Source of the DNA: Enoplolaimus lenunculus
Lineage: Eukaryota
Direction of reading: 5' to 3'
Length of the DNA stretch: 64,000 bases
Assembly (NCBI GenBank): GCA_030248215.1
Contig: JASANG010000932.1
Location: 434,001 to 498,000 of the forward strand
In this document: in pieces, positions 11,883 through 57,754 of the stretch
How positions within the stretch are numbered: position 1 is the first letter of the stretch
Layout of the letters: each line of letters starts with the position of its first letter
The notes under the pieces: model-generated
Database searches by the model: none
Seen by the model: only the letters and a program-made list of their open reading frames with translations
Told to the model about the DNA's origin: nothing
Made by a program: the position numbers and the translations under genes

Positions 11883-11917
11883 TAACAGCTTTATCAAATG
11901 AAATATTGCTTTATTAA

Positions 11918-13134: not shown

Positions 13135-23608
<10,474 letters not shown>

Positions 23609-31782: not shown

Positions 31783-34700
31783 ATGGGATTCGATGTTAAT
31801 CGTTTCGAAGGCGATGTTGATGAAGAGCTTATGTGTCCGATTTGTAGCGGTGTACTTGAAAATCCAGTTCAGGTAGGTGTGTAGTGTTCATTTTTGATCG
31901 CCGAAATTTGGCACTGAAGCTGGTCTGTCTGTTTTTGTAAAATTTGCAGCAAAATAAGACGCCGAAACTTAAAGATTTTCTGCAATCGAGCGAGAAAACA
32001 GCTGTTAGCTTGGCAGACGATTGCTTGTAATACCTTTAAATCGCTATGCGGTTCCAGGTATTTTGTTTGAGTTTTATCTATGGACTGTTAGTTTGATAGC
32101 TGTTCGTTTGCGATTTGCAGGCTGAGCTGTGTGAACACGCATTCTGTCGCGTTTGTATTGAAACATGGCTGGAACAGTCGACAAGTTGTCCTGTTGATCG
32201 CGAGTCGTTACATCCACAACAGTTGTCGTCACCGCCAAGAATCTTAAAGAATCTACTCGCTCGACTGATGATTGCTTGTGATAATGAACGGTAAGTTTAA
32301 ATGTCTTATTCGTTAAGGGTTTCGAAGATTTATGCAGTTAAAAGGCGATAAAACTGGTTGTTCGCGTTATTTGTTGACGTTTGCTCACTGGGAGACTGGA
32401 GATTTAGCGATTAACAGATTTAGGCTTAGGCTTTGCTTATGCTTTGGATTAGTCTTAACCAAATGCTTATAATGTAGGCTTCGTGGACAGGCTTTTATTG
32501 CGAACACGGGCTGAACTGATATTTATGAAGCTCGCTCTTGTTGTGAGTACCAATTTATACATTTCATAGATTTTTAAAAGCTGGCGGCCGTTTTCTGTTG
32601 TAAAGTTTGGTTCAGCTGTACGAACCGTTCTATCGTGACAGTTGCAATTTTTTCAAAAACTTGCCATAACTCATAATCGCAATTATTTGAAACAAAAATA
32701 GATTTTTTATCGAAGTTAAATGGTAATTTTAGTTTTTTTAAATACATTGCTATCCTTTGCTGGTTTCGTTTATGAAACCCTTGACGTTCAGTAGAATTGG
32801 CGGTTCAGATCAAATCTAAATTTAGTCTCTTGACGTAGGGATGTCATCGCTGTGATATTGGATCGTATTCTCAACTATGTATAGCACTTATTGTCAGTTA
32901 ATACTCGATGTTGAAACAGTCGGTCAGCCGTAGCTGTGTATCTCAAATTCCACAAAGTAGCAGGGTTGATAAAATTAATGCTAAAATTACAGGATCTATC
33001 ATTGGTAACAGATTCTGACCACATTTGAGAATACGTGCAATTTTTGTTTGAGTTGTTTCATTCAGGCATGGCTGTGAAACTGTTGTACGATTAGATCAAT
33101 TAGAGGGACACACTCGTGATTGCCAGTTCAATCCGAATCGATTGATGCAGTGTCAACAAGGATGTGGGTTAAGTATTCGCCAGAATGAACTTGCGGTAAG
33201 TCACAGGCTTCGTATTTATCGGTGCATTCATAGAGTATATACTGCTATAGGCAGTGAAAGTACAAGTTGTGTACTTGAAATAATATATAATGTGCGGCGT
33301 GTAACGATGCTTGAGATTAAGTCTCAGATGAACAGAAGCTGTTCAATAAAGGAACGGTTGAAATGTTTTGAGGTTGTAAATGTGAAGTTTGATCGATGAG
33401 ACATTTTTTTGTTATGACACACAAGCACTATTCACTTGCGCCAGTTCTTGCAGTGATAATTTGCAACCGTATTGAACGTAAAATCAAAATTATTGTAGTA
33501 TGCAAGAAGCGCTTTGAGTATGCCTTTATAATATTATTTAACCTTGTGGGTTTTTCAGGAACACCGGTGTATTGAATCGTTAAGGCTTGCGTATGAAAGC
33601 CAACGGACAAATTTAGAATCGTTGATGAAGAAAGATGAAGATAAAGAGCGTAGGTTGGAACAATTGGAGCGTGATTATAAAGAGGTCAAGGTAAATAGTG
33701 TATAAACTTTTCTCATAAAATGTTCTACTAACTGAAACAGACTGAAGAATGGGAACTGAGTGATATTGGGTTTGCAGAAGAATTAATGTAATTTTGAAAA
33801 TTAATATTTGAATCGAGTTTTGGCTTCGACGTTTAAATTATGTTTAAATTCCAGGATACGCTGACTGCGCTGTTATCTGAACCTGGAACCAGCTCTGGGA
33901 TTAGCTCAAATACGGCCGCGTCGACTGATGAATTAGAAACTTGGGTTCGATCCCTGCCGCGAGCTAAAGTTAACCGGTGGGGTGGTATGATTTCGACGCC
34001 GGATGCAGTTTTACAGGTGGGTTGCGAAAGTTTGCAGGGGTAATTGCAAAGCTTGTGGCTTGTGCGTTTATCGACAAAACGTATTTTTTCCAGAAATAGT
34101 ATATTATGCGCAATGCGCATTAAGACGTCCACATACTGCAAACGAAACAACCTACCCGGACAGCAGTGTATGTGACATTAGGATTTTTTATTAATTTTTA
34201 AGGTCCCGGAATGGCGTTAAGTCAATGCTTGCCTCCACTTTTTCGTATAAAGCGGTGCCTTTAATCAAGGTGTTTTAAGTTTGGAAGACTTTTCTAGTCA
34301 AGAAGTACACATATTTTTATTTTAAGCGCTCACAAGTTCAACTATGTTTTAGGCTGCAATTCGAAGATCTTTGATCGAAGCCAGTTGTCCGTATTCCGCA
34401 GTGCCATCGTTGCTGGGGCGAGCTCATGAACGTGAATGGCCCCGTGGTTTACAATCGCTTGAGGTAAACTTTTCATTTGTTAAAGTTCATAAGAAAGTAG
34501 GTTTATAATTAAAGAAAGAATGTTGAATATACGTAATTTGATAATAGTATCAGCTAAGTGAACCAAATATGTGCAAATCAGTGTTCTTAGAGGAAAATTA
34601 GCATTCCAAATGTTGCAACCACTTTGACTAGTATCATTTATTTGCGTACTACTGCAATTATAGATGTGTATTTAAAACGCAAAAGTAAGGGTTGAGTATA

Positions 34701-35057
34701 CTTTTGAAAGACGCTTGGTGTCGATGGCTGACCACGACACACGACAAGTATAACGCCACCCTAAACGTTTCAGCGACTGTTAGTACGCGCTCGTATGATA
34801 GCGTATTTTTGCATTTCGGAAAAACGATCCAAGGCTTTCAAAGTATTTATGTTTAAGATATGCATAATTATAGTTTTTTTTGCTTCAAATTGCAGGTCAG
34901 ACAAAACAACCGAAATCAGTACAACCGATACGTATGCCGTCGGATTCCAAACCGTCAAGCTGTGCTAATTTTAGCTTCCGAAAATCAACACATGTCACGT
35001 GATTTGGTTGTTGAACCAGCGTTGGTTGTACTGTTTGCTAATGGAGTGGAAGGATAA
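31783..35057 (+). CDS. RNF41: E3 ubiquitin-protein ligase NRDP1/RNF41, 7 exons, ~318 aa
   Basis: Exons 31783-31872, 32121-32290, 33066-33195, 33559-33690, 33855-34016, 34353-34463, 34896-35057 (957 nt). MGFDVNRFEGDVDEELMCPICSGVLE, RING CEHAFCRVCIETWL..CPVDR, zinc-finger CQQGCG, coiled coil, USP8-interaction domain WVRSLPRAKVNRWGGMISTPDAVLQ..AHEREWPRGL..EPALVVLFANGVE. Confidence 0.95.
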
Positions 35058-36330
35058 AGGTTTCATTTTGCATTTTTGCAGTGGATATTGAGACGGGGCA
35101 ATATTTTCGGTATCCTGTTTAGTAGGGTGCTGGTAGACAGTATACGGAAGGCATTCTTTAAAGGAACCTGGAAGTTTCGGGTGTATATTGTGACCGGGGT
35201 TATATATGTGGTGTCGAGTGAGTTTCGTAGTTTGATGTGGACTTTGGTTTCGAAATCCGACCTGAAAAATTAAAACGACATCTTGACTGTTCGTGGGGTT
35301 AGAAAGAAGTTGGACACGGAAGAGGAATGTAGCGAACTGCTGGGTGTCGTAAATATTGAGCTGGTTTCGCAAGTGATCATCGTGGACTGGAAAGCAGATT
35401 ACCTGACCAACACAACTGGACTTCAGGTCATAGACGTCTGGCACTGATGATCCCAGCCCCACATAGGAATGAATATGCTATCTTCGGGTTCGTGAAATGG
35501 GTCTTCTTTGGTTCTTTCGCATCGAGAAATAGAAATCGATGACAGATCCATGTTGGGCACTTGTCAATAGATGTTCTACAGTTTCCTTTTCATTGCATGG
35601 CTGTGCCGACATAATGCTGACTCAAACAATAATATATGCATAACTTCGGTCCACAAAAAGCATATGCATCCCAAACATGTATGATCATAGACTTGATTGT
35701 AAGTTAAGTATGTAAATGATAGACCGTGAGATATATTACCGGTTACGGCATATGTCGCTTTTTGCTAATAATCGTATTAATCACATTACTGATCGACTTC
35801 CATGATCAACCCAGTTTATTTCAATGTTATGCTGATGGTATTCAGGTACACGAAGTTTATTTTCATATTTTATATATTAATTGAGAGTTGAGATACTTAT
35901 TTACCACTATGTTTACTCCGATTTTGAAAAATATAGCCAGATGAAAATGAATTAACGCTAACAGATTTGATATCTGGTAGGACCAGGCATTATGAAGTCA
36001 AAACATATTTCGTTTGATTATTCAGCACTTGCAGATAAGAGGAAGCTATGCAAAACATTAGTGTTATTTCAGTTCTCACAGAAAGTGTGCTTCAAAATCT
36101 TATAAAAGTTAATTATTCGTTGGTAAAGTGAAAATTGTTCCAAATTTTTGAACCGTTAGTAGTACATGCACGTCAACTGTAAGATTTGGTGGCTCATATT
36201 TAGGTCTGGGGCGGACCGCTTTTCCGCCGGACTTTAATAGAGTATGGTTAAGCGTCAGAAAAATTTTGTTAGCTTACGCATATGTAGAGGCGTATCCTTA
36301 CGTTTAAGCTTAGGAATATGCTTATACTAC

Positions 36331-37007
36331 TGCGGCGTTCACGTTATAACTGGGGCAGCTTCGAACACGTTTTGTCCAAGTTGATTCGACGTCAACATAA
36401 AATTTTGTGATCCGAATAGCGGTTATGTAGACCAAATGTGAATGTCATATGACATTGGCTTACAAATCACTGATGTCAAGCGATCATCGTATACAAATAA
36501 TCATTTGTCATATGATACTGCGGGACATTTATGCGAATATCATATGATATTCCAAAATTCTACTAAATATCATATGATATTTATACAGGACAATGGAATT
36601 TGTGCACGCTAAATAAAACAGTAAAAAGTCGGATAATGCAGCATTAAATGATTTCGCAAGTTGAATTAGTTTCTACCGTTCTGTTTCTCGCTAAGTTTTT
36701 CCCAAAATATATCCCTAAGTACAAATAATTCAAATCTGTAATTTTAGTATCATATGACATTCTACAGTACAATCAAGCTAGTTTACCACAACTTTGCAGA
36801 CATTTTCAAACATATCATATGATACTCGCAGACAATATTTGGAATATCATATGATATTGCAGTACAAACAGTAGATGTCACATCAGGATAGCAGACAATT
36901 CAAATTTTTTTCTCATAGCGGATAAACGGTCAGACAAAATGTTACCAGCTATAGTCATAGGGACAAAACGTGTTCCAGGCTGCCCCAGTTATAACGTGAA
37001 CCCCGCA
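36331..37007. mobile_element. Second copy of the TGCGG-terminal element, nested in a subfamily-A MITE (~36200-37048)
   Basis: tgcggcgttcacgttataactggggcagc..gctgccccagttataacgtgaaccccgca; splits the MITE consensus atactac|tgtt. Confidence 0.7.
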
Positions 37008-38920
37008 CACTGTTACGGCCGTGTCCTACACATTAACCATTTTAAAGCAAAAACAATAGTAGTACGGTAATGTTTTTTTATTGTTTTGTTTATCTTGGCC
37101 CTTGTAAACAATAGGGGGGTGCCTGCTAAAAAAGCATAAACGTAAACGACATGAACGTTATTTTTATTATATGATGTTTTCGTAATAAAAACCTGGGCGA
37201 TCACTAAAAACGAGCGAATCGGTTAAAATCTAAAAAGGTAACATGAACCGGAAGACAATACATTAACACAGACGTTGCATCAGTTTAGATTTGAAACAAA
37301 TTTTATTAAATTCATTTCCAAAAATATGCCATGGTAAATATAAGAATACGTATTTTTAACGATGTGTATCAGGGTGCAACCGGAGGTGGAAAAAATTTTA
37401 CCGGAGCCAGAAGTGAATCAGGAGTTGCGGCAAAATTAGGTACATTAAGGTGGTATAAAATGATTTCCTGCAAATGAGAAATTTGTAAGCCAATGTCATG
37501 GGACGTTCATATTTTGTCTACGTAACCGCTTTTCAGATCGCAACATTATGTTGATGTAGAAGGAATATGAACAAAACGTGTTCCAAACTGCCACAATTAT
37601 AACGTGAGCCTCGCTTAAGGTGCTATGTCTACCGGAGCCAGAGGGAGACCTTCGATTGTGCCCTGGTGTATATGGGATCTATCACCAGGGAATATGTCTA
37701 ACAAACAAGAAGTGAATCAAACTTTACAAACCTTGTACTGCAAAAGCTACACAGCAGTGTTAACATAGAGATTTGCATAAGTCGTAGGTAGTTAGCAGTG
37801 TACGATCGGTGGTCCGGATCCGGCTGAAAAACAACGTCCGGCTCTGGTATACTTTTTGCCAGGCGTTCGGGTGTTGTTGGAAACCTCAGACTCTCATGTG
37901 ATTTTTCCTAGTAAAGTGAATTTTACTACGAAATATCAGACCCTATGACTGTATACCTTCAGCTCACTTTAATACAAAGAATCGGACCAAAAATTAATTT
38001 TTGCTAAATTTAAGTTCTTTCACAGCTTTATACATGTTACGTAGTATCATATGATATTCAAAAGGAAAATTTGTTTAGACGAAAGAAAAGGTTCGGTTTT
38101 TAGTTTAGTCCTTCAAAAATACAGTCTGGGATTTATGTGAGAAATAGTAGGGCTGCAAAAATTGCTACTGGTTCAGCAGCGAGCTTGTATTTTGCTACAT
38201 GTAAACTTAAAAGTTTGATTAAGCGTATTCCTAAAGCCTAAAACCTAAAGCCTAAGCGTTGCAAAAATGTGTTCCTAAACCGAAACCTAGCCTAAGCAAA
38301 AAATGCAACCTGGAATCTTATCCTACTATTTTATAGACTCACCAGAAACCTGGACTCCCTTAAAGTAAACATGAGGCAAAGTTTAGGTTAAACTTTAATT
38401 ATATAAAATTTACTTAGGTGAAAAATAAGATTCATTGCCATAATTTTTACGTATACTTGAATGTTTTAGAATTTTCTGATTCAATTTTAAATAATTTACA
38501 TTTATCAGGAATAAATCAAGCCTTGCATTACTAGGGCCCATGTATAGAACAGGGCCTGATCGTTTTTCGGAGGGGCTATAACAGAATCAGTTTAAGCTTT
38601 AGACTAACTTTTTTGCTTAGGCTTTGGCTTTGGCTTTGGCTTAGGCTTAGGCTTAGGAATATGCTTATACTACTGTTCCGGCCCTGTTCTATACATGGTC
38701 CTATTACCAGGAACACGCGTTGCCTATAAAAATGTTTATTTTGGTAGCATAAACTGTTATCTTACAAATTCCAGTGTTATAGTCGCTGTTTTACTTAATT
38801 TTAGAACGAAATTTTCTACAAAACAATCCTTACTGACATTATTGGTTCGTTTCTTAAATGTGTTAAACGCAACGGTTATCTTCAAAATTCCAGAGTTACT
38901 CTGCTAACCGGTACGAAACG

Positions 38921-38931
38921 GGGGTATAAAA
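38921..38931 (+). promoter_or_regulatory. Candidate TATA box of the peptide-precursor gene
   Basis: GGGGTATAAAA lies ~125 nt upstream of the ATG at 39050. An acceptor (ttatttgttcag, ends 39032) sits between them, either a 5'UTR intron or a trans-splice site. Confidence 0.45.
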
Positions 38932-39049
38932 ATGGTTGCGCAGTTTTGATTCGGCTCAATATCCGATTGAAATATTAAAATTTACAGGGTCATATTTTTG
39001 TTTGTGTTTTAATTTCATATTTATTTGTTCAGTAACAACGTAAAAAATC

Positions 39050-42000
39050 ATGAACGTCGCAGTACGTCTGCTCTTGATTTACGGTAAGCGATAAGAAAAT
39101 AATTCGAGAAAAATATTAAAAGTACAAGACGAGTTTAAGTAATTTAAGAAGTTTTAAACCTTAGGATAACTAAACCGCTGGTCTTGAATACATTGACGCG
39201 ATTCAAGCTGACAGTTTTGGGCCAGTGTTAAGAACAGGAGCGGAACAGGATTATATACATATTCCTAAGCGTAAGCCTAAGCCTAAGCCTGAGCGTAAAA
39301 ATGAGCATATTCCTAAACCTAATGCGGGATTTAAGTTACAACCGGGGCAGGCGGGACACGGTTTGTCCCATGGTGGTTTGACATCAACATTAAAATTCGG
39401 GCTGTCATATCGGGTCCGCAGACATTACTCAGATGCCATATGACACTAACCTACAAAGCACTGCTCTCAGGTGTTCTTTGTGTACAAGAGACAGTATGTC
39501 ACATGATACTAGAGGACATTTATGCGAATATCATATGATATTCCAAAATTACAACGAATATCATATGATAATCACCGGGACAGTGCAATCTTCTATGTGG
39601 GATGACAGAGGCACAGGTGCACCTAAAAATATCAAAAGCAAGCCGGATTCATTTCCGGCACAAACGCGCTCAGAGCTATAGCGTGATATTCAAAAATTCA
39701 AATTTGAAATTCTAGTATCATGTGATATTCAACAGGACAATTTGGGTACCTCAACTGTGCAGAGAATTGAAAATATATCATATGAGATTCGCAGACAAAA
39801 TGTCGAATATCATATGATATTGAAGTACAAAAGGCGATCTACACTTGATGATTGCAGACAAATACGACTTTTTGAATATGATATGGAGTCTATAAGCAGA
39901 CAAAATGATACCCAATAGTCTGATAGTGACAAACCATGTCTCAAGCTGCCCCGGTTATAACGTGAACCGCGCATAAGCTTACACCTAAGTCAAAAGTCCA
40001 GCAAAAAATTAGTCTAAAGTTTAAGCTTGCTCTATTGTAGTCCCACAGAAAAACGTTCCGCCCTTGATCTTTGCATGGGCCCAGTTTTGGAACCGGCATG
40101 CTGATGAAGTAAAAAGCTCGGTTGTATTGTATTTGTTCAGTTAACCTTTGAAATGGATTAGATATTATTGTTTATATATTTTTAGTTATGCTTGTTGCCT
40201 ACGGTAGCGGATCTCCAGTCGGTAAGTTAGTAATAGTAATTGACATGCATTAAATTCGCGACGCTATTTTGCTATAGTTTCTTTACAATGCAAAATCAAA
40301 ACGAGGGAAACGTGAAATTGAGTTGGAACTATGAAGATAATGGCTCAAAGTTTATGAAAAGAGAACATGTTAATTATACAAAACTGCGCGAAATCTTGAA
40401 CTGACCAAATTTCACAACATTTATGATTTTTAATTATTACAAATGTTATATTCATTCGTAGTACAACAATTTGTTTCAGTGAAGAAACGGCAAGAATGTG
40501 AGTTTTAGTGTTTACATTGTATTTTCAAATAAGTTTTTTATATTTGTCACCAACATCCACCGTACATCCACCAGACAACTCGTAGACCGACTGAACGGCG
40601 TATACTTAGTCACATTATCGCACATACCCGTGCCACTATGTCAATATGTTATAGAAATGACAGCTGTTTTGCCCATAGTTTGTTAGAAAGGACTCCGCTT
40701 TTTGCATAATACAGAGTTTGTCCGAAGGCACTCTGTTTAGCGATTATGCAAAGTCCGTCCGTTGTACCGCCTTTACAGCCAAAGGTGTTGACGTTTTGCA
40801 GTAAGTTAGGCAGAATAATGTAAATGACCCAGAAGCTATTCATGCATACAGTGGAAAATTGCATTAATTATCAATGGAGCTAAAGATCATTTTAATAAAA
40901 AATGTACTAGGTATATCACTAAAGTAATCATGCCTATTTTAACATAAAAATCTCGAGACCTTCAACATACGTGATAAAGCATTGTTTTAGCAGATGTCAC
41001 TGTCAAATTTAATTTGTTTCACATTGGGCTAAATAGCAAAGTTTTAGTCGCGATAGATGTGTCACCCGTTTATGAATTCCGTCGCAGATCCATGGAGATA
41101 GTGTATGCAGAAAGTCTACCAGTTTAATCTCAAGATAATATTAATTGTATATAGAGTATACACGAATTCGCCGTATTTGATTTTAATCATACGAACAGAC
41201 GTTTGCAACCATATTGTTTTGTACATTTTAGGGTTTGCTTTACGCAGATTGCATGAGGTTACCCTAATGTTTATTAGGAAGCAAATGCCAGTAGCAAAAT
41301 TCACGATTTTTAACTAAACACTTCATGCGTACAGTGCAAAAATGCATTCAAATCAGTAGGACTAAGGATCATTGTAATATATAAACGTTTTATATTACTT
41401 AAGTAGTCATGCTTATTTTATAATTTTATCAATTTATTTCAGTGGCAAAACGAATTCCTTTGGTAATAGAAGGAGTCGGCACGTTTGAAGGTAAGGTCGA
41501 TGAAACTGTTTTAACAATAATGAAAAAATAGTTATAAATGCTACATTAAGGCTGTTTAAGTAATTTCAGAAATCACTAGCTCAATAGTAACTACTGTTTA
41601 AAGTATTTTATTTCGGGATTAAGGTTCTGTCTAAAAATAATTTGTAGTGGTTCTACTAAATTCCAAACTTCTATCGTTGCCACAAATTACCTATTCAAAT
41701 TCTTCGAGAGGGTTGCCGAATGAGAATGAAGAAGTATTTAAGGTATTGCTAGCTGTTTTTGCGGCATTTAAGCACAGATGGCTCAAAGTTTAGGACAAAA
41801 GAACCTGCTACTTAAAAAATTGCGCGAAATTTTGAACTGACAGAATTTAACAACATTTATGAATTTTAATTATTACAAATGTTATTTTCATTTGTATTAC
41901 AACAATTTGTTTCAGTTAAGAAACGACAAGAATGTAAGTTGTAGTTGTTTACATTGTATTATTCAAATTAGTTGTTGATATTCGTCACTCACATCCAACG

Positions 42001-45000
42001 TACACCCACCAGACAACTGGCAGACCGTCCGAATGGCGTATACGTAGTCACATTATCGCACATACACATGCCACTTAACACAGAGTTTGTCCGAAGTGAC
42101 TCTGTTTACCCATTTTGCAGAGTCTGTCCGTTGTACTGCTTTTACAGCCAAGTGTGTTGACGTTTTACAGTAAGTTAGGCAGAATAATGTGAATAACCCA
42201 TAAGCTATTCATGTACCCAGTGCAAAAATGCATTAATTATCAATAGAGCTAAAGATCATTTTAATAAAAAATGTACTAGGTATATCACTAAAGTAATCAT
42301 GCCTATTTTAACTTAAAAATCTCGAGACCTTCAACATACGTGATAAAGCATTGTCTTAGCAGATGTCACTGTCAAATTTAATTTGTTTCACATTGTGCTA
42401 AATAGCAAAGTTTTCTACTCGTACTAAAGCTTTAAAAACTATTAATAAAAGTGGCAATAGATGTGTCACCCATTAACGAATTCCGTCGCAGATCCATGGA
42501 GATAGTGTATGCAGAAAGTCTACCAGTTTAATCTCAAGATAATATTAATTGTATATAGAGTATACATGAATTCGCCGTATTTGATTTTAATCACACGAAC
42601 AGACGTTTGCAACCATATTGCTTTATGCATTTTAGGGTTTGCTTTACGCAGATTGCATGAAGTTACCGTAATGTTTATTAGGAAGCAAATGCCAGTAGCA
42701 AAATTCACGATTTTTATGTAAACACTTCATGCGTACAGTGCAAAAATGCATTCAAATCAGTAGGACTAAGGATCATTGTAATATATAAACGTTTTATATT
42801 ACTTAAGTAGTCATGCTTATTTTAAAATTTCATCAATTTATTTCAGTGGCAAAACGAATTCCTTTGGTAATGGAAGGAGTCGGCACGTTTGAAGGTAAGG
42901 TCGATGAAACTGTTTTAACAATAATGAAAAAATAGTTATAAATGCTACATTAAGGCTGTTTAAGTAATTTCAGAAATCACTAGCTCAATAGTAACTACTG
43001 TTTAAAGTATTTTATTTCTGGATTAAGGTTCTGTCTAAAAAATAATCTGTAGTGGTTCTACTAAATTCCAAACTTCTATCGTTGCCAAAAATTACCTATT
43101 CAAATTCTTCGTGAGGGTCGCCGAATGAGAATGAAGAAGTATTTAAGGTATTGCGAGCTTTTTTTGCTGCATTTAAGAGCAGGTGGCTCAAAGTTTAGGA
43201 AAAAAGAACCTGCTACTTAAAAAACTGCGCGAAATTTTGAACTGACAGAATTTAACAACATTTATGATTTTAATTATTACAAATGTTATTTTCATTTGTA
43301 TTACAACAATTTGTTTCAGTTAAGAAACGACAAGAATGTAAGTTGCAGTTGTTTGCATTGTATTTTTCAAATCAGTTGTTTATATTCGTCACCCACATCC
43401 AGCGTACACAGACCAGACAACTGGCGGACCGTCTGAATGGCGTATACGTAGTCACATTATCGCACATACGCATGCCACTTAACACAGAGTTTGTCCGAAG
43501 TGACTCTGTTTACCAATTTTGCCGAGTCTGTCCGTTGTACTGCCTTTACAGCCAAGTGTGTTGACGTTTTAAAGTAAGTTAGGCAGAATAATGTGGATAA
43601 CCCATAAGCTATTCATGCACCCAGTGCAAAAATGCATTCATTATTAATAGAGCTAAAGATCATTTTAATAAAAAAATGTACTAGGTATATCACTAAACTA
43701 ATCATGTCTATTTTAACTTAAAAATATCGATACCTTCAACATACGTGATAAAGCATTGTTTTAGCAGAAGTCACTGTCAAATTTAATTTGTTTCACATTG
43801 TGCTAAATAGCAAAGTTTTCTACTCGTACTAAAGCTTTAAAAACTATTAATAAAAGTCGCAATAGATGTGTCACCCATTTACGAATTCCGTCGCAGATCC
43901 ATGGAGATAGTGTATGCAGAAAGTCTACCAGTTTAATCTCAAGATAATATTAATTGTATATAGAGTATACATGAATTCGCCGTATTTGATTTTAATCACA
44001 CGAACAGACGTTTGCAACCATATTGCTTTATACATTTTAGGGTTTGCTTTACGCAGATTGCAAGAGGTTACCCTAATGTTTATTAGGAAGCAAATGCCAG
44101 TAGCAAAATTCACGATTTTTAACTAAACACTTCATGCGTACAGTGCAAAAATGCATTCAAATCAGTAGGACTAAGGATCATTGTAATATATAAACGTTAC
44201 AGTGCAAAAATGCATTCAAATCAGTAGGACTAAGGATCATTGTAATATATAAACGTTTTATATTACTTAAGTAGTCATGCTTATTTTAAAATTTTATCAA
44301 TTTATTTCAGTGGAAAAACGAATTCCTTTGGTAATAGAAGGAGTCGGCACGTTTGAAGGTAAGGTCGATGAAACTGTTTTAACAATAATGAAAAAATAGT
44401 TATAAATGCTACATTAAGGCTGTTTAAGTAATTTCAGAAATCACTAGCTCAATAGTAACTACTGTTTAAAGTATTTTATTTCGGGATTAAGGTTCTGTCT
44501 AAAAATAATTTGTAGTGGTTCTACTAAATTCCAAACTTCTATCGTTGCCAAAAATTACCTATTCAATTCTTCGTGAGGGTCGCCGAATGAGAATGAAGAA
44601 GTATTTAAGGTATTGCGAGCTGTTTTTGCTGCATTTAAGAGCAGGTGGCTCAAAGTTTAGGAAAAAAGAACCTGCTACTTAAAAAACTGCGCGAAATTTT
44701 GAACTGACAGAATTTAACAACATTTATGATTTTAATTATTACAAATGTTATTTTCATTTGTATTACAACAATTTGTTTCAGTTAAGAAACGACAAGAATG
44801 TAAGTTGCAGTTGTTTGCATTGTATTTTTCAAATCAGTTGTTTATATTCGTCACCCACATCCAGCGTACACAGACCAGACAACTGGCAGACCGTCTGAAT
44901 GGCGTATACGAAGTCACATTATCGCACATACGCATGCCACTTAACACAGAGTTTGTCCGAAGTGACTCTGTTTACCAATTTTGCCGAGTCTGTCCGTTGT

Positions 45001-48000
45001 ACTGCCTTTACAGCCAAGTGTGTTGACGTTTTAAAGTAAGTTAGGCAGAATAATGTGGATAACCCATAAGCTATTCATGCACCCAGTGCAAAAATGCATT
45101 CATTATTAATAGAGCTAAAGATCATTTTAATAAAAAAATGTACTAGGTATATCACTAAACTAATCATGTCTATTTTAACTTAAAAATATCGATACCTTCA
45201 ACATACGTGATAAAGCATTGTTTTAGCAGAAGTCACTGTCAAATTTAATTTGTTTCACATTGTGCTAAATAGCAAAGTTTTCTACTCGTACTAAAGCTTT
45301 AAAAACTATTAATAAAAGTCGCAATAGATGTGTCACCCATTTACGAATTCCGTCGCAGATCCATGGAGATAGTGTATCCAGAAAGTCTACCAGTTTAATC
45401 TCAAGATAATATTAATTGTATATAGAGTATACATGAATTCGCCGTATTTGATTTTAATCATACGAACAGACGTTTGTAACCATATTGCTTTATGCATTTT
45501 AGGGTTTGCTTCGTAGATTGCATGAAGTTACCGTAATGTTTATTAGGAAGCAAATGCCAGTAGCAAAATTCACGATTTTTATGTAAACACTTCATGCGTA
45601 CAGTGCAAGAATGCATTCAAATCAGTAGGACTAAGGATCATTGTAATATATAAACGTTACAGTGCAAAAATGCATTCAAATCAGTAGGACTAAGGATCAT
45701 TGTAATATATAAACGTTTTATATTACTTAAGTAGTCATGCTTATTTTAAAATTTTATCAATTTATTTCAGTGGCAAAACGAATTCCTTTGGTAATAGAAG
45801 GAGTCGGCACGTTTGAAGGTAAGGTCGATGAAACTGTTTTAACAATAATGAAAAAATAGTTATAAATGCTACATTAAGGCTGTTTAAGTAATTTCAGAAA
45901 TCACTAGCTCAATAGTAACTACTGTTTAAAGTATTTTATTTCGGGATTAAGGTTCTGTCTAAAAATAATTTGTAGTGGTTCTACTAAATTCCAAACTTCT
46001 ATCGTTGCCAAAAATTACCTATTCAATTCTTCGTGAGGGTCGCCGAATGAGAATGAAGAAGTATTTAAGGTATTGCGAGCTGTTTTTGCTGCATTTAAGA
46101 GCAGGTGGCTCAAAGTTTAGGAAAAAAGAACCTGCTACTTAAAAAACTGCGCGAAATTTTGAACTGACAGAATTTAACAACATTTATGATTTTAATTATT
46201 ACAAATGTTATTTTCATTTGTATTACAACAATTTGTTTCAGTTAAGAAACGACAAGAATGTAAGTTGCAGTTGTTTGCATTGTATTTTTCAAATCAGTTG
46301 TTTATATTCGTCACCCACATCCAGCGTACACAGACCAGACAACTGGCAGACCGTCTGAATGGCGTATACGAAGTCACATTATCGCACATACGCATGCCAC
46401 TTAACACAGAGTTTGTCCGAAGTGACTCTGTTTACCAATTTTGCCGAGTCTGTCCGTTGTACTGCCTTTACAGCCAAGTGTGTTGACGTTTTAAAGTAAG
46501 TTAGGCAGAATAATGTGGATAACCCATAAGCTATTCATGCACCCAGTGCAAAAATGCATTCATTATTAATAGAGCTAAAGATCATTTTAATAAAAAAATG
46601 TACTAGGTATATCACTAAACTAATCATGTCTATTTTAACTTAAAAATATCGATACCTTCAACATACGTGATAAAGCATTGTTTTAGCAGAAGTCACTGTC
46701 AAATTTAATTTGTTTCACATTGTGCTAAATAGCAAAGTTTTCTACTCGTACTAAAGCTTTAAAAACTATTAATAAAAGTCGCAATAGATGTGTCACCCAT
46801 TAACGAATTCCGTCGCAGATCCATGGAGATAGTGTATGCAGAAAGTCTACCAGTTTAATCTCAAGATAATATTAATTGTATATAGAGTATACATGAATTC
46901 GCCGTATTTGATTTTAATCACACGAACAGACGTTTGCAACCATATTGCTTTATACATTTTAGGGTTTGCTTTACGCAGATTGCAAGAGGTTACCCTAATG
47001 TTTATTAGGAAGCAAATGCCAGTAGCAAAATTCACGATTTTTAACTAAACACTTCATGCGTACAGTGCAAAAATGGATTCAAATCAGTAGGACTAAGGAT
47101 CATTGTAATATATAAACGTTACAGTGCAAAAATGCATTCAAATCAGTAGGACTAAGGATCATTGTAATATATAAACGTTTTATATTACTTAAGTAGTCAT
47201 GCTTATTTTAAAATTTTATCAATTTATTTCAGTGGCAAAACGAATTCCTTTGGTAATAGAAGGAGTCGGCACGTTTGAAGGTAAGGTCGATGAAACTGTT
47301 TTAACAATAATGAAAAAATAGTTATAAATGCTACATTAAGGCTGTTTAAGTAATTTCAGAAATCACTAGCTCAATAGTAACTACTGTTTAAAGTATTTTA
47401 TTTCGGGATTAAGGTTCTGTCTAAAAATAATTTGTAGTGGTTCTACTAAATTCCAAACTTCTATCGTTGCCAAAAATTACCTATTCAAATTCTTCGTGAG
47501 GGTTGCCGAATGAGAATGAAGAAGTATTTAAGGTATTGCGAGCTGTTTTTGCGGCATTTAAGAACAGATGGCTCAAAGTTTAGGAAAAAAGAACCTGCTA
47601 CTTAAAAAATTGCGCGAAATTTTGAACTGACAGAATTTAACAACATTTATGATTTTTAATTATTACAAATGTTATTTTCATTTGTATTACAACAATTTGT
47701 TTCAGTTAAGAAACGACAAGAATGTAAGTTGTAGTTGTTTGCATTGTATTTTTCAAATCAGTTGTTTATATTCGTCACCCACATCCAGCGTACACAGACC
47801 AGACAACTGGCAGACCGTCTGAATGGCGTATACGTAGTCACATTATCGCACATACGCATGCCACTTAACACAGAGTTTGTCCGAAGTGACTCTGTTTACC
47901 AATTTTGCCGAGTCTGTCCGTTGTACTGCCTTTACAGCCAAGTGTGTTGACGTTTTACAGTAAGTTAGGCAGAATAATGTGGATAACCCATAAGCTATTT

Positions 48001-49804
48001 ATGCATCCAATGCAAAAATGCATTAATTATCAATAGAGCTAAAGATCATTTTAATAAAAATGTACTAGGTATATCACTAAAGTAATCATGCCTATTTTAA
48101 CTTAAAAATCTCGAGACCTTCAACATACGTGATAAAGCATTGTTTTAGCAGATGTCACTGTCAAACGTAATTTGTTTCACATTGGGCTAAATAGCAAAGT
48201 TTTCTGCTCGTACTAAAGCTTTAAAAACTATTAATAAAAGTCGCGATAGATGTGTCACCCATTTTTGAATTCGTCCCAGATCCATGGAGATAGTGTATGC
48301 AGAAAGTCTACCAGTTTAATCTCAAGATAATATTAATTGTATATAGAGTATACATGAATTCGCCGTATTTGATTTTAATCATACGAACAGACGTTTGTAA
48401 CCATATTGCTTTATGCATTTTAGGGTTTGCTTCGTAGATTGCATGAAGTTACCGTAATGTTTATTAGGAAGCAAATGCCAGTAGCAAAATTCACGATTTT
48501 TATGTAAACACTTCATGCGTACAGTGCAAGAATGCATTCATATCAGTAGGACTAAGGATCATTGTAATGTATAAACGTTTTATATTACTTAAGTAGTCAT
48601 GCTTGTTTTAAAATTTTATCAATTTATTTCAGTGGCAAAACGAATTCCTTTGGTAATGGAAGGAGTCGGCACGTTTGAAGGTAAGGTCGATGAAACTGTT
48701 TTAACAATAATGAAAAAATAGTTATAAATGCTACATTAAGGCTGTTTAAGTAATTTCAGAAATCACTAGCTCAACAGTAACTACTGTTTAAAGTATTTTA
48801 TTTCGGGATTAAGGTTCTTTATAAAAAATAATTTCAGCGGTTCTACTAAATTCCAAACTTCTATCGTTGCCGAAAAATGACCTATTCAAATTCTTTGTGA
48901 GAGTTGCCGAATGAGAATGAAGAAATGTTTAAGGTATTGCGAGCTATTTTTGCTGCATTTAAGAACAGATGGTCAAAGTTTAGGAAAAACGAACCTGCTA
49001 CTTAAAAAAGTGCGCGAAATGTTGAACTGACAGAATTTAACAACATTTATGATTTTTAATTATTACAAATGTTATTTTCATTCGTAGTACAACAATTTGT
49101 TTCAGTAAAGAAACGACAAGAAAGTAAGTTTTAGTCGTTTACATTGTAGTTTTCAAATCAGTTGTTTATATTCGTCACCCACATCCAGGGTACACCCACC
49201 AGACAACTGGCAGACCGTCTGAACGGCGTATACTTAGTCACATTATCGCACATACCCGTGCCACTTGTCAATATGTTATAAAAATGAAACCTGTTTTGGC
49301 CATAGTTTGTTACAAAGGACTCCGCTTATTGTATGCTACAGAGTTTGTCCGAAGGGACTATGTTTACCGATTTTGCAGAGTCTGTCCGTTTTACTGCCTT
49401 TACAGCCAAGTGTGTTGACGTTTTACAGGAAGTTAGCCAGAATAATGTGGATTACCCATAAGCTATTCATGCATCCAGTGCAAAAATGCATTAATTATCA
49501 ATAGAGCTAAAAATCATTGCTCGTACAAAACCTTTCAAAACTATTAATAAAAGTGGCAATAGATGTATCACCCATATATGAATTCCGTCGCAGATTCATG
49601 GAGATAGTGTATGCAGAAAGTCTACCAGTTTAATCTCAAGACGATATTAATTGTATATAGAGTATAGATGAATTCGCCGTATTTGGCTTTAATCTAACGA
49701 ACGTGTGGTTGTTAAGATATTGCATTAAAAATCAATAGGGCTACAGATCATTTTAATGTAAATACGTACTATTCACGGACTAATAGTTATTTTCAGCAAA
49801 ATGA
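39050..49804 (+). CDS. Predicted secreted multi-copy peptide precursor encoded by micro-exons (16 coding exons, 163 aa): signal peptide, then SPV-VKKRQE-[L(A/E)KR-IPLV(I/M)EGVGTFEV-KKRQE]x6-TK*
   Basis: Exons 39050-39083 (MNVAVRLLLIY) and 40186-40221 (VMLVAYGSGSPV). Then alternating 18-nt exons (40480-40497, 41916-41933, 43320-43337, 44782-44799, 46242-46259, 47706-47723, 49106-49123) and 48-nt exons (41443-41490, 42847-42894, 44311-44358, 45771-45818, 47233-47280, 48633-48680), and a last exon 49797-49804. Acceptors are tttcag/ttttag, donors are gtaag/gtgag, every intron is phase 1, and the 492-nt frame is open. Differences inside the VKKRQE codons are synonymous (GTG/GTT/GTA, CGG/CGA). No transcript evidence is available here. 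Confidence 0.8.
39220..40081. mobile_element. Merlin-like MITE subfamily A interrupted by a TGCGG-terminal element (intron 1 of the peptide gene)
   Basis: Perfect 8-bp TSD cagttttg at 39212-39219 and 40082-40089, GGCC termini, insert at 39323-39973. Confidence 0.8.
40340..49700 (+). repeat. Tandem array of ~1.40-1.46 kb exon+intron units (about 6.5 copies)
   Basis: Spacings between successive 18-nt exons are 1436, 1404, 1462, 1460, 1464 and 1400 bp. Intron sequence is near-identical between units. A ~58-bp internal duplication (acagtgcaaaaatgcattcaaatcagtagg...) occurs in units 3-5. Confidence 0.95.
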
Positions 49805-49970
49805 ACGTCATGAGATGAATGACAATTACTGTTCGACACAGTCCTTAAACTGCTACTAAAATCAAATTGAATTTTTATTGGACGTAGAAAATATAACAGT
49901 GTTTATTGCAGTATGATTGGCTGAATTTTTATTTATGTTCTAATCGTTGATTTAAGCTGTTATAATAAAC

Positions 49971-50103
49971 CTAAGCCTATGGCTAAGCCTAAGCCTAACC
50001 CTAAGCTTAAGCCTAAGCCTGAGCCTAAGCCTAAGCCTAAGCCTAAGCCTGAGCCTTAGCCTAAGCCTAAGCCTAAGTCTAAGCCTAAGCCTAAGCCTAA
50101 GCC
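49971..50103 (-). repeat. Interstitial (GCCTAA)n telomere-type array
   Basis: About 22 units, between the peptide gene 3' end and the CYP 3' end. Confidence 0.9.
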
Positions 50104-50697
50104 AATATGACCTACAAAATCTTGAACCGTCGAACAAATGCTTGTAGTAAAACACGTTTTGATTGGTTATATTATACTTCATATGTACAAGGACATCCAT
50201 TATTTTATTCGTGTTTATTTTTGTCCTAACCCCAGTCTAAGGACTGTCCTCACGGGAAGACCCCAAATTGGGCTGGTGACCCCAAATAGACTCAATCTAA
50301 ATGTATATAGTCTTGAATTGCAAATGTAGGGGTCGCTTAATATTTTTCAGTGCTCCGCCCAAAATACATTTTTCTGCTGACGCCCCTGGGCTTTTGATTG
50401 GTTAAACTGTGCCGAGCTCTGTTAAAATTCAAAACAAGGTTCCGATTGTCGAATGAAATCAATGAAACTTAGTTTCGTGTTTAACGATTGGCTAAAGACA
50501 CAAATGATTACGGAAACGGAAGTCAATTTTTACCGGATATACAAATACTTATTCATTAGGCTTCTTTTAAAATTGTGAACAAAAAAGAGCGGATGCAGTT
50601 TTTATTTCATATCGAACAATTGCAGCATATCAACATTTTGCAAAATTTGATGATTTAGTAAATCTTAAAATATGAAGTAATAAATGTTGAAGAATAT

Positions 50698-51673: not shown

Positions 51674-52099
51674 CTGTAGTGACCCGAATAAGAGGGGGGA
51701 CTGATATTTATTTGGCCTCTCGAGAGGGTAACCCCATTGTTATTCGGTTACGGACTGTTATTTATTTTAACCCAAGCTCCGCCGCCCTTCGTCGCTGAAA
51801 TATATCCGGTACTGCAATTATCCGTTGAATTAAACGTTTATTTGTCTTGTGTCAATAGCTTGAGCGATAATACAAGGTTACACTTAGGAATGTGCTTTCA
51901 AACTTTAAGTACGCTTTAAAGGTTCGACCTCAAATTATTTGGTCCTGGATTTATTTATGCGCTACAATTAGGATTAATGGATATTTATGGACTCTAATTA
52001 GGGTTTAGGGACTCTATGCGCTTACGGACTCTTATTAGGGATACGGAATCCAATTGATTCGGACTCAAAATGGGGACCCTCTTATTCGGGTCAATACAG
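51674..52099. mobile_element. Tc1/mariner/pogo-type MITE (TA TSD); mirror at 63573-64000
   Basis: ta|ctgtagtgacccgaataagagggg..ccctcttattcgggtcaatacag|ta. Confidence 0.7.
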
Positions 52100-54962
52100 T
52101 AAAACTTGTTAATTCAGCGTGATTTTAAATCATTTATTTTCGTTTATCTTCAAATCCAAAGCACAGTTCATACCTCAATTGTGTTGGCAGAAAAATAAAA
52201 CATTTTTGAAATTTTGAAATTACGCTGCAATATCTGTTTTCCGTTTCTGTTATTTTTACTATCTGTTTTAGAATTCTTAATCGACAAAACGCTATTACAA
52301 GTTGAGGGTTTAATATTAAGAATCTGCGGCATTATATAGGACTTTATGGCCCATTTACGGATTTTCTGAGGCGGATTAGGAGTCCTACTTAGCTCTATGT
52401 TTCTCTTATGCAGAAATTGTGGCCAGAATTTGCGTATTTCCCCTGTGACAATTGCGGTGTTTGCACGGCATCATAAAGGTTAATGTTTTACATAGACGAG
52501 TACTTCACTAAACCGAATATATACTTCGTTCAATGACATCATACGTCATCAAAATATAATTCTGAGTCGAAGCCTAAGCCTAAGCCTAAACGAAACCTAA
52601 TGGCGTACGAGCAAATGTCTGGTCTATGATATTATCGGTTATAATGCGAATCTCGGTCGATAGTCCTGGCGACAAAATGTCATTTATGCCGTTTTCGAAT
52701 TCATTTGTGAACCAATTTCTGATTGGCTAAGAAAATACCATTCAAAGGACAAACCGCCCCCGCCCCCTCAGGCCCGTAATCTGTAATTGGCTGCGCTGGT
52801 GATGTTCTTCTCGTTCTTACCGATACAATTTCGTGGGCCAGCTGCAAATGGAACGAATGAGTACGGATGTCGGCTCATATTTTCAGGATCGTCGTGAGCG
52901 AATCTGTCAGGTATAAATTTGTCAGGATATTCGTAGTAGTCTGGGTCACGATGGATCGACCACATCGATATCATTGCTGTACATCCGGCCGGTATGACGT
53001 AATCAGCTGAAATCCGTTTTAAATTTTCACTCATTCTCACTTGAATAGTTTCGGGCCATTTAAAAATCAGTGGCGGAACGTTTTTCTGTAGGACTGCAAT
53101 AGAGTAAAGCTTTAGCTTTAGACCATTTTTTTGCTTGGCTTAAGCTTAGGCTTAGGAATATGTTCATTCCTACGCTTAGGCTTAGACTTAGGGTTAGGCT
53201 TAGGAATACGCTTAATGCGCTTTGACGACTCTCAAAGTAACATTGGCCAAAAATATAGACCAACTCATTTTGGTGGCGTGTGGTAACGCGCGGCTGCGTG
53301 CGTCGTCATGCGGAAACGTGCGGCAAAATTTAAAAAATTTACCTGCTGCGGCGTCCGGCAGTGCCCCGCGGACATTGCGCAACCTAAAGAGTGAATGATA
53401 AATGATTGATATTATTTTGTTACCTGCAGTAAACGGTTCAGTCACTTTTCGACCCACATACGGTACAGGTGGCACATATCTCATCGATTCCATAATAAAA
53501 GTTCGCAGGACGCGAAGCGATTTAAGCTTCGACGGATTCAACCAATCACATTCGTCGCCTGTAAACAGCAGCTGAGTTGTGTAATACCCAATCAAAAAGT
53601 TTAAGAGTTGGTTGATTATAATACTTTTGGATAGAAAATGTGAGCATTTACACAAGCTGGGGTAAAACCGTTCCGAGGAACGGAGAGCAAAATTAGATCC
53701 AAAGCTTATATTTGGAAAGTTTTCGCAATCCTACAAACCCCTATAATCACAGCTGTCATTGTAAGTGTGAATGGTTAAAAATAGGACTTTTTTCACACGT
53801 TTCTGATTGGGTAATTGAAAACCTCTGAGTTAACAGTCGAAGTCGAAAGTTTTCTAACTAAAATATTGACTTTTCAAGTTTCAGTTGCGTCTTTGAAACC
53901 CAGCGAATAGCGCGTTTCTGAAATATTGTTCAAGTATTTACTTAACTTACGTACACTTTTAGAAACAATAAATTGATTAAACAAATGCATAGCAAATACA
54001 TATAAGCATAAAATTGTACTTAAGCAGGCTTTCAGAAGCCCAGCCATTGTTTATGGATCATCCTATTTATATAATCTGCTCGGATGTACAAAACAGAACT
54101 GTAACCTAAGAGTTGGTACAACGCAAACAGCGTGCTCTATCACAACAACGTGTCCTGAGTCTGTAAATCGGATACCGGAACAGTAATCACACATTTTTTA
54201 CAAAGTCCAGAAATCGAAACAAAATACAAACATACACATATATCAAAACATGAAGTCGTACTTAAGTAGGCTTTCAGAAACCTAGCCATTGTTTTTAGTT
54301 TTATGAAATTAGCAGGCTGATTCCTATGCTTTATGATTTAAGTTAAATCGGTTAAATGTTTTCCATTGAAATGTAAATTTTAACATTTTTTCTCATTTGC
54401 GTGTCTTGTTTCAACTGCCGTCACTTACTTGGAATACTTATAAATACTTTGATGCTACTTGAGAGCACGGTGTAACCGTTATTTCGACCACTATCCGTTT
54501 CCGTTTCCGTTTCCGTTTCCGTGATTTTTACTATCCGTTTACACCCTGCTTGAAAGTATTACAGTTATTGGTCCATGTTACTTTAAAGGGCGTGCCGTTT
54601 TTGCAAGCATGCAATAGAGAACGTTAAATCTTTTTAGAGTAACGGTTATGCTTAGGCTTAGGCTTGGTTTTAGTCTTGTCCTTGCATACGGAAGGTTAGC
54701 CTTAGACTGAGATATTTTCAAACGCTTACTGTTTACGCCCCTAAAAGTAACAATTGTAAGCATTGCTGTAGAAGGTCGTTTTATTAATAAACGTACTCAG
54801 AGTTTCTGAAATTTCTCGATAAATATGCTCCTGATACTCGGGAAAATGACCAAGGAAAAATATTGTCCAGCAAATTGCAGTTGCCGACGTATCTGTAGCC
54901 TGAAACATTTGAAACAAAATTGACAAACTTTTATTTTTGCGTTGCGGCTCTTTGAACATTTT

Positions 54963-55077
54963 CAAACAAACAGACAAACAAACAAACAAACAAACAAACA
55001 AACAAACAAACAAACAAACAAACAAACAAACAAACAAACAAACAAACAAACAAACAAACAAACAAACAAACAAACAA
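54963..55077. repeat. (AAAC)n microsatellite; shorter mirror (GTTT)n at ~60665-60723
   Basis: Read directly; the copy number differs about two-fold between arms. Confidence 0.95.
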
Positions 55078-55673
55078 TGCTATTAAGCTTCGTAAGCGCA
55101 AGTTCTACAAGACGTGAGACCTCCCTCGTGCTCGAGCATCTGCAGACCCTTAAAGTTGAGAGTGGTAAATGATGAGAACGTCTCTCACACCATGAAACTA
55201 CGATTCGAATCTTGGCTTGAAATTTAATTTGCATACAGTGCAAAAAAATGGTGAGCCAAATTGACTCTCTCGAAAATAGGCTTTTCCTGGCTACTCAAAC
55301 TGAGTCAAGTTCGACTCCACCAGAGTCAAATTCGATACACTGAGTCGCACGTTTGACTTTGGCGGAGTCGAATTTGACTCAGATTGTGTAGTCAGGAAAA
55401 GCCTATTTCCGAGAGAGTCGATTTGACCCCATTTTTTACGGTGTACATTTTAGTATAAATATTCATGTGAGAAAAGGTTCACAGTTGTCTTACTCCTTGA
55501 GTAAATGTGTCAACTTCTTCACGAATGTCACATTTGTTCATTTCATGCTTTGAAGCGAGTTCGAGTAGAATATCGAGGAATGTACATCGTTTTCGACCAT
55601 CAACACTGCGGTATGGACACTGAATTCGTGCTGTGATAATCTGCAAACAACAATAAATATTCATAAATTTCAT

Positions 55674-56444
55674 CGCCAATGTTAATTCCTAAGCCAAAGC
55701 CTAAACCTAAGCCTAAGCGTTGCAAAAGCGTATTCCTAAGCCTAAGCCTAAGCGTTGCAAAAGCGTATTCCTCAGTTAAGCCTAAACCTAAGCGTTGCAA
55801 AAGCGTATTCCTAAGCCTAAGCCTAAGCGTTGCAAAAGCGTATTCCTCAGTTAAGCCTAAACCTAAGCGTTGCAAAAGCGTATTCCTCAGTTAAGCCTAA
55901 ACCTAAGCGTTGCAAAAGCGTATTCCTAAGCCTAAGCCTAAGCGTTGCAAAAGCGTATTCCTCAGTTAAGCCTAAACCTAAGCGTTGCAAAAGCGTATTC
56001 CTCAGTTAAGCCTAAACCTAAGCGTTGCAAAAGCGTATTCCTAAGCCTAAGCCTAAGCGTTGCAAAAGCGTATTCCTCAGTTAAGCCTAAACCTAAGCGT
56101 TGCAAAAGCGTATTCCTCAGTTAAGCCTAAACCTAAGCGTTGCAAAAGCGTATTCCTAAGCCTAAGCCTAAGCGTTGCAAAAGCGTATTCCTCAGTTAAG
56201 CCTAAACCTAAGCGTTGCAAAAGCGTATTCCTAAGCCTAAGCCTAAGCGTTGCAAAAGCGTATTCCTCAGTTAAGCCTAAACCTAAGCGTTGCTAAAGCG
56301 TATTCCTAAGCCTAAGCCTAAGCGTTGCAAAAGCGTATTCCTAAGCCTAAGCCTAAGCCTAAGCAAAAAATGTAGTATAGAATGTAAGCCTACTCTTTTA
56401 TTGACTCACCACAAACCGGGACAGTCCTAATAGTAACATGGGCC
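55674..56444. mobile_element. Merlin-like MITE B with an internal 35/40-bp minisatellite expansion (mirror at 59287-60067)
   Basis: Perfect 8-bp TSD aatttcat. The interior is an array of gcgttgcaaaagcgtattcctaagcctaagcctaa (35 bp) and gcgttgcaaaagcgtattcctcagttaagcctaaacctaa (40 bp). Confidence 0.85.
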
Positions 56445-57754
56445 AATTTCATTTTAATATCTTAAAATTTCTTGAGATATATTTCATTCCAATTTAAAAG
56501 TGTATTAGGCTCTTGTATACTTACCCGTCATAAAAAAAGCTTAGACGTAAACTTAGGCAACGGGTTCGTAGACTGAGACTAAGGTTTAAACAAAAACATT
56601 AGGCTTAGGCTTAATGAATTTTTTCTAAAAATCGGAACAGTATTATAAGCTTATTCTTACACGTAAGCCTAAGCCAAAGCCTAAGCGTAAGAATGAGTTT
56701 ATTCCTAAGCATAAAACCCTAAGCCTAAGCGTAACCCAACCAAAAAATAGTCTAAAGCTTAAGCTTACTCTATAGCAGTCTCACAGAAAAACATTCCACC
56801 CCTGATCTTTACGTGGGCCAGCCCAACGAACCTGTGAATAAAAGTGAACAAGAGCCTTTTATGCAAATTTAAAATGTCTTTTAACTTTTAGTTTTTGTTG
56901 AAAATTTTCTCACATTTGAAATTTTTTTAAAAATCAAAAACTTTAAGCTGATTTTGGCTAAAGTTGCTGAATTCACTTCTAATCGCTCAGAACTTGAGCA
57001 AACTAACTTTTTCGGTAAACTCGTGTGCCGTTTTGATGGCTCGTGTTAAGGTAAAACCGTAGCCAAAGCAGTAAAACAACGGTCGAAACCACAGCCACGG
57101 AGAGCGTTCTTTGCGAACCATAAGCTCTGTGATTCTGAAATAAAAATAGGTAGTAAAATAGCGGAAAACGGATATTGAAGTATAAAAGTTTCAAAGATGT
57201 ATTATTCGGTCACCATAATTGCGGCATGTAGATATCAGTTGGCTTTCTAAACCTTTAAAGGAAAAATAACGGATGCACCAAAATTCTTTTATTATTTTGG
57301 ACGAATTTCGTTGCTAATGTTTCATACAGAACAATTAAAGCATATTTGTAATGAAATACTGTGATGTACACATGGGATTTATAACTAATTTTAAGCATAA
57401 AAATAGGGGAATTTCCGGTATTTTTATAACGGAAAAAAACGAACACCGATCTTTACCGGAAACGGAAACAGATATCCGGTTAATAGATGTATATATACTA
57501 AATAGCTTATGTATAGAACAGGGCCGGATCGTTTTCCGAAGGGGCTGTACCTGTCATACAGTCAGCTTGCGATTTAGACAAAATTTTTTGCTTCGGCTTA
57601 GGCTTACGCTTAAGTTTAGGCTTAGGAATATGATCATTCTTTCGGTTTTGCCAGGATTCATAGCAAAACCAAAGGTTTTTTAGCAACAGGAAAATACAAT
57701 TCCAGTATTCTCGTCATTACTTAAATCACTGCTTATAAAATTGCAATAATCAAT

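Follow-up and report, generated by a model that had tools for sequence, protein, structure and literature searches.

In a 64,000-nucleotide stretch of the Enoplolaimus lenunculus genome (assembly GCA_030248215.1, contig JASANG010000932.1, positions 434,001 to 498,000 of the forward strand; hereafter, the window), a tandem array of kilobase-scale repeat units very probably holds a real gene. An earlier note on this DNA had proposed that a micro-exon gene is hidden inside what looks like a satellite. When we rebuilt the frame from the exon coordinates (positions 39050 to 49804, forward strand), 16 exons joined to give an open frame of 163 amino acids, which bears the proposal out. All 15 introns begin with GT, end with AG, and are phase 1, and the length of each of the 14 internal exons is divisible by 3, both as had been claimed. 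Coding sequence makes up 4.6% of the span, in line with the earlier figure of about 5%. The predicted product consists of a signal peptide and then six 13-residue peptides, IPLV(I/M)EGVGTFEV, flanked by KR or KKR, and it is probably cut into these 13-mers. As to what the gene is, we lean modestly towards a nematode prohormone gene, the predicted secreted product of which would be cut at KR/KKR to give six unamidated 13-mers with a neuropeptide-type signal role.

The first two exons stand outside the repeat. The predicted signal peptide begins in exon 1 (39050 to 39083, 34 nt), which supplies the initiating ATG, a basic n-region, and the first half of the hydrophobic core. Exon 2 (40186 to 40221, 36 nt; acceptor rank 26) encodes the remainder of this peptide, as judged by hydropathy, with a small-residue c-region, and then opens a short propeptide. 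The repeat unit that follows is built from one 18-nt exon, which carries nothing besides a KKR site and the first part of a spacer, and one 48-nt exon, in which the rest of the spacer is followed by a KR site and the peptide. Copy 0 of the 18-nt exon, at 40480 to 40497, differs from the inner copies by two silent changes, and copies 1 to 6 lie at 41916 to 41933, 43320 to 43337, 44782 to 44799, 46242 to 46259, 47706 to 47723, and 49106 to 49123. The 48-nt exon occurs at 41443 to 41490 (copy 1, Ile form, with the top-ranked donor and acceptor types), 42847 to 42894 (copy 2, Met form), 44311 to 44358 (copy 3, in which the spacer Ala is replaced by Glu), 45771 to 45818 (copy 4), 47233 to 47280 (copy 5), and 48633 to 48680 (copy 6, Met form). 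The two Met forms (copies 2 and 6) and the spacer Glu ahead of peptide copy 3 agree with the earlier note. These exons were placed by rebuilding the frame, together with copy alignment for 48-nt copies 2, 3, and 6 and 18-nt copy 6. The coding part of the terminal exon spans 49797 to 49804, with a TGA stop codon at 49802 to 49804. All exons are on the forward strand.

Both repeated exons are phase 1-1; therefore, the frame is kept whenever a unit is gained or skipped, and in the model, every exon skip is computed to preserve the frame. We detected no lesions in the 16 exons, and the GT and AG of the model introns are intact in all copies. An alternative acceptor for exon 2, at 40141, was rejected because it introduces an in-frame stop. 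The first nine bases of exon 1 (39050 to 39058, including the ATG) recur at 49800 to 49808, directly after the terminal acceptor. This recurrence is probably due to chance, though it may be left over from an older duplication.

We scored every GT and AG in positions 38900 to 49960 using hand-set splice matrices. All model donors (15/15) fell within the top 18 of 728 GT dinucleotides, and all model acceptors (15/15) within the top 36 of 680 AG dinucleotides; because of the repeat, these represent only four independent donor types and four independent acceptor types. The donors of the two unique 5' exons ranked 7 and 8, making them the two best donors outside the repeat, and the acceptor of the terminal exon ranked 1. 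For comparison, on identical scales, five donors of the sodium-calcium exchanger (NCX) gene in the same window scored -1.5 to 6.4 and five of its acceptors scored 3.6 to 6.9. The combination of two strong exons, two dibasic sites, and a repeating frame that stays open was found in 0 of 3000 dinucleotide shuffles of one unit and in 0 of 70 other stretches of the window, on either strand, and an open two-exon frame of any kind was found once in each set (1/3000 and 1/70). The thresholds for these nulls were chosen after the scores of the model were known, so the true P value is higher than the counts suggest; the counts are strong support, yet they do not provide a clean P value. Each unit also contains competing sites, namely strong acceptors, one of which sits in the 425-bp intron, and one donor. 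We rejected the 22-nt decoy exon that every unit contains (of the type at 43552 to 43573), as it breaks the frame; its donor GT is lost in the last, partial unit of the array.

Within the first 20 residues of the predicted precursor, a basic residue precedes a hydrophobic core that gives way to small residues, with a hydropathy peak of 3.19 over residues 7 to 15 (nine residues), consistent with the signal-peptide-like N terminus that had been described. Each of the six peptide copies sits between KR and KKR, and there are 13 KR/KKR sites overall. The peptides lack Cys and end in TFEV directly before KKR; the rebuilt frame thus agrees with the claim of six 13-mers between dibasic sites with no Gly for amidation. 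Cutting at the dibasic sites followed by trimming would yield four copies of IPLVIEGVGTFEV and two of IPLVMEGVGTFEV, plus 4-residue spacers. The monoisotopic masses are 1371.77 (Ile form) and 1389.72 (Met form), and the net charge is -2. The peptide is rich in Val, Ile, Phe, and Thr around a central Gly-Val-Gly, and its acidic and hydrophobic character is unlike that of cationic antimicrobials. Omission of an 18-nt exon would give a 14-mer, one residue longer and ending in Ala. One study defines nematode neuropeptide precursors, for working purposes, by a signal peptide together with dibasic flanks (PMC9881375); short peptides with dibasic flanks are found here in 6/6 copies.

Under the prohormone reading, the gene would be transcribed from a TATA promoter, possibly with trans-splicing, and all exons would be included in the transcript. 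The precursor would enter the secretory pathway and lose its signal peptide near Gly18 to Gly20. A convertase of the PC2/EGL-3 type would then cut it, carboxypeptidase E (EGL-21) would trim the basic residues, also freeing the 4-residue spacers, and the released 13-mers would act on a receptor. This is ordinary prohormone logic, and the gene itself reveals no new signalling mechanism; the peptide is an orphan, and the two-exon cassette, with its visible crossover history, is unusual.

That history is recorded in the array, which spans 40340 to 49727 on the forward strand and consists, by self-BLAST and unit alignment, of six full units (u0 to u5, 1400 to 1464 bp) and a 762-bp partial unit (u6). 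Identity is 92.7 to 99.5% among u0 to u5 and 88 to 91% for u6. Units u2 to u4 are 99 to 99.5% identical to each other (8 to 16 differing sites), and a 59-bp tandem duplication at 44139 to 44257, 45599 to 45717, and 47061 to 47179 sets them apart as the array's youngest clade. Over the span common to all blocks, u1 to u5 are chimeras with a 5' end resembling u6 and a 3' end resembling u0. In u2 and u4, the 5' part matches u6 over u0 at 38 versus 15 sites, and the 3' part matches u0 over u6 at 20 versus 5 sites (P = 2e-5); in u1, the corresponding counts are 34 versus 16 and 19 versus 6 (P = 5e-4). All five inner units show this chimerism with P about 5e-4 or lower, for a boundary between 5' and 3' parts that was picked after the unit alignment was viewed.

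Because the inner units are chimeric between the outer blocks, the array can be accounted for by unequal crossing-over that started from an ancestor with, most likely, one peptide, and the chimeric signature supports the suggestion in the earlier note that the gene grew by duplication of exons together with introns. The ancestor would have had a single 48-nt peptide exon between two homologous blocks, each with an 18-nt exon, and would have encoded about 53 amino acids with one peptide. Mispairing of the two homologous blocks would have led to unequal crossing-over and a chimeric unit, which would have been amplified afterwards, with u2 to u4 as the latest round. Judging from the alignment, then, crossing-over of entire exon-plus-intron blocks is the likely route by which copy number grew. 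Growth of prohormone copy number by unequal recombination is known, usually inside one exon, and multi-copy invertebrate prohormones such as Drosophila FMRFa share with the present gene this manner of multiplying copies (PMC2575521). Among the literature matches listed, as far as their accessible parts go, there was no nematode case of exon-wise duplication in a precursor. Exons are not mentioned in the accessible part of PMC11658156, and those of PMC4772807 and PMC11538413 contain nothing decisive for the reading of the gene.

The closest layout among nematode precursors is that of NLP-8, NLP-14, and NLP-15, which combine a signal peptide, as predicted here, with numerous unamidated peptides that are nearly identical, about 13 residues long, and set between KR/KKR sites, as in the present gene. 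NLP-14 and NLP-15 belong to the pedal peptide/orcokinin family, as stated in PMC5656890. In the rows available for As-NLP-8D, As-NLP-14C, and As-NLP-14G (PMC8764417, Table S7 and Fig. S1), NLP-8/14 peptides also share with ours the motif [ILM]EG-x-G at positions 5 to 9, with I, L, or M varying at position 5. However, the peptides here lack both the A/S-L/F-D/N of NLP-8/14/15 at positions 1 to 3 and the F-G-F/L/M at positions 10 to 12 (0/6 positions match), and they are separated by 4-residue spacers that the NLP-14 rows seen in PMC8764417 mostly do not have. We regard the resemblance to NLP-8/14, which is not significant after correction, as a lead rather than as membership. The hallmark of FMRFamide-like peptides (FLPs), a C-terminal RF-Gly for amidation, is absent from these peptides.

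Two systems outside nematode neuropeptides invite comparison. Like the micro-exon genes (MEGs) of Schistosoma, as described in PMC5825161, the gene has small symmetric exons, a secreted product (predicted here), and skips that keep the frame. The earlier note had drawn this likeness, and it fails on the definition: symmetric exons of 6 to 36 bp make up about 80% of the coding sequence (CDS) in MEGs and 33% here (162/492 nt), a share that rises to 91% if the limit is placed at 51 nt. Also unlike Schistosoma MEGs, the repeated exons are near-identical and carry dibasic sites, and the host is not a schistosome. With fungal KEX2-processed repeat proteins (KEPs), the precursor shares a signal (predicted here), a short propeptide ending in KR, and repeated cores between dibasic sites. 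In contrast to KEPs, it is encoded in an animal genome; all named rows among the matches listed for the neighbouring NCX gene are animal proteins.

Several results weigh against the prohormone reading, and the first of these concern selection. Variable columns numbered 5 of 66 in exons, 1 of 28 in splice sites, and 167 of 1303 in introns, after exclusion of 141 columns with fewer than six letters, all intronic. By this measure, exons are not significantly less variable than introns (P = 0.14), nor are splice sites (P = 0.11). All indel blocks (21/21) are intronic, which speaks for the gene, although exons account for <5% of length. The earlier note had claimed that substitutions in the VKKRQE codons are silent. 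This holds as a count (3/3 silent, P = 0.011 taken alone), but the argument built on it is selective: the 48-nt exon has two changes, each of which alters an amino acid (2/2), and the silent share overall is 3/5, or 3/6 counting the junction base (P = 0.10 to 0.16, not significant). In addition, the matrices behind the splice ranks were set by hand from the splice-site consensus, and faster decay of the outer blocks near the homology boundary could partly explain the middle-versus-end pattern in the array. The likeness to NLP-14, with the core scored as [ILM][ED]G-x-G, covers 4 of 10 constrained positions; its P value is 0.013 when a single family is considered and rises to about 0.8 once some 60 families are allowed for.

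The lack of a homologue belongs on the same side. Queries were single-exon frames with intron-derived flanks, 30 to 42 amino acids long, so blanks are weak results. Searching 1.84 billion representatives with phmmer returned one match (P0004, E = 1.2e-5), a secreted-looking protein of 593 amino acids in which KR sites separate about ten amphipathic repeats, nearly identical to one another, in the layout of a fungal KEP. We rejected P0004 as a homologue in favor of chance or analogy, given 44% identity over 17 residues only and an amphipathic-looking repeat. A word-indexed search of longer proteins scored 0 of 7 candidates. In most cases, a neuropeptide of old origin is conserved throughout nematodes (PMC8764417). 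Recent amplification together with orphan status, by contrast, fits a gland product equally well. Searches elsewhere were likewise empty: there were no Pfam matches for the two exon frames (12 proteins scanned), no matches among PDB sequences up to E 10, no usable match to the exon frames in the ESM Atlas, and 0 and 0 matches to two degenerate exon patterns in metagenome contigs. The Pfam and PDB searches gave no support for a likeness to the HU/IHF beta-hairpin motif that had been considered. The string GVGTFEV occurred in no paper in a text search, the coverage of which excluded bioRxiv supplements and most subscription papers. When the supplements of PMC8764417, PMC9881375 (file 6 excepted), and PMC8153747 were searched for short parts of the peptide, the only relevant row was As-NLP-14C, which contains EGVG; the absence of a match in the nematode peptide tables searched agrees with the earlier note, which did not recognise the 13-mer as belonging to a known FLP or NLP family.

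Three other explanations have to be set beside the prohormone reading. The same gene with the same processing could make 13-mers that are exocrine, as a pharyngeal or excretory gland product, a seminal or adhesive secretion, or a peptide directed at a host or prey, amplified for quantity. The orphan sequence, the very recent amplification of u2 to u4, and the TATA promoter all suit this explanation, as do two parallels: near-identical copies and spacers resemble those of fungal KEX2-processed repeat proteins, and schistosome micro-exon genes encode gland products (PMC5825161). The peptide itself, which is short, acidic, without Cys, and similar in length and core to NLP-8/14, points away from it, and we consider an exocrine role unlikely but deserving of serious attention. 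A quite different proposal is that the protein is secreted and stays uncut, as a basic protein (pI 10.2) with six 22-residue repeats, each a possible beta-hairpin, in a structural or adhesive role. The composition of the 13-mer would suggest hairpin propensity. Against this, every peptide copy has KR/KKR on both sides, one exon encodes a site and spacer only, and no solved structure matched up to E 10; we think an uncut product improbable.

It is about equally improbable, in our judgment, that there is no functional gene at all, and that the array is a noncoding tandem repeat, a dead gene with its frame pieced together from chosen splice sites, or an artifact inflated by assembly. The nonsignificant selection signal, the strong competing acceptors and competing donor in each unit, and the small difference between u2 and u4 (8 sites) are what such an explanation would expect. 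It has to contend with null counts of zero in both the shuffled units and the other window stretches, with unique 5' exons whose donors complete a signal peptide in the correct phase, with a terminal acceptor at rank 1, and with units that differ by their own indels and substitutions while their exons are free of lesions.

The prohormone reading can be extended to a new peptide family, a speculative step that we regard as doubtful. In such a family, the dedicated 18-nt cleavage-site exon would let splicing set the number of peptides (one to six) and the C terminus (13-mer or Ala-ending 14-mer), block crossing-over would vary the copy number between individuals, and the gene class would be missed by repeat masking and gene finders. 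If the gene is expressed, an orphan peptide with exact masses joins the poorly sampled peptidome of a non-model nematode. Because the crossover between outer blocks can still be read in the inner units, the unequal recombination account can be tested at one locus, and it predicts a one-copy gene of about 53 amino acids in relatives, a form that would be hard to spot in any annotation, as well as copy-number variation between individuals. The locus also exposes a blind spot, in that a gene with so small a coding share lies inside a repeat with kilobase units.

Candidate transcription signals surround the model on the forward strand. The TATA-like box that had been reported upstream is TATAAAA at 38925 to 38931, a consensus match only, with an initiator-like TCA about 33 nt downstream (38956 to 38958). 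An acceptor resembling a 3' splice site (39017 to 39032, rank 16 of 680 AG) lies 17 nt before the ATG; from its sequence, it is possible that this is a trans-splice site or the end of a short intron in the 5' untranslated region (UTR). Past the stop codon by 160 nt is AATAAA at 49964 to 49969, again a consensus match only and the sole hexamer found in 49801 to 50400 among the four polyadenylation types sought. These three sequence features fit one complete transcription unit. The frame of the nearest upstream gene, which resembles RNF41, ends near 35058, so the micro-exon gene is separate from it.

Intron 1 contains one or more dispersed repeat elements with TTAGGC-type ends (39215 to 40081, by self-BLAST), with related copies at 11202 to 11883 and 36327 to 37007. 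The family of elements with TTAGGC arrays also occupies many shorter sites in the window, and its copies are 69 to 78% identical. TTAGGC arrays are frequent in the window, and PMC10760449 gives TTAGGC as the canonical nematode telomere motif.

Searches of the window with Rfam and ARAGORN gave 0 matches. The NCX gene (335 to 8843, forward strand) has a 1.16-kb exon and, in its conserved part, no relative above 73% among the 120 of 240 matches listed. In a quick tree of 50 rows, using 49 of these 120 matches, NCX groups with Trichinella and one unlabelled row (SH-aLRT 99); branches are long, and only one of the 50 rows is a named nematode. With the TTAGGC arrays, this grouping makes a nematode host likely. 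A gene for the catalytic alpha subunit of AMPK lies at about 14900 to 24000 (forward strand), with its first kinase exon matched and later exons seen by eye only. The gene at 31783 to 35058 (forward strand), which we take from its sequence to be RNF41/Nrdp1-like, a name the search did not confirm, has an acceptor 4 nt before its ATG, as trans-splicing would predict. At the far end of the window, a 6.1-kb inverted duplication (51674 to 57778 versus 64000 to 57952, 96.2% identity) has arms about 170 bp apart, reaches the window end, and carries cytochrome P450 exons in both arms.

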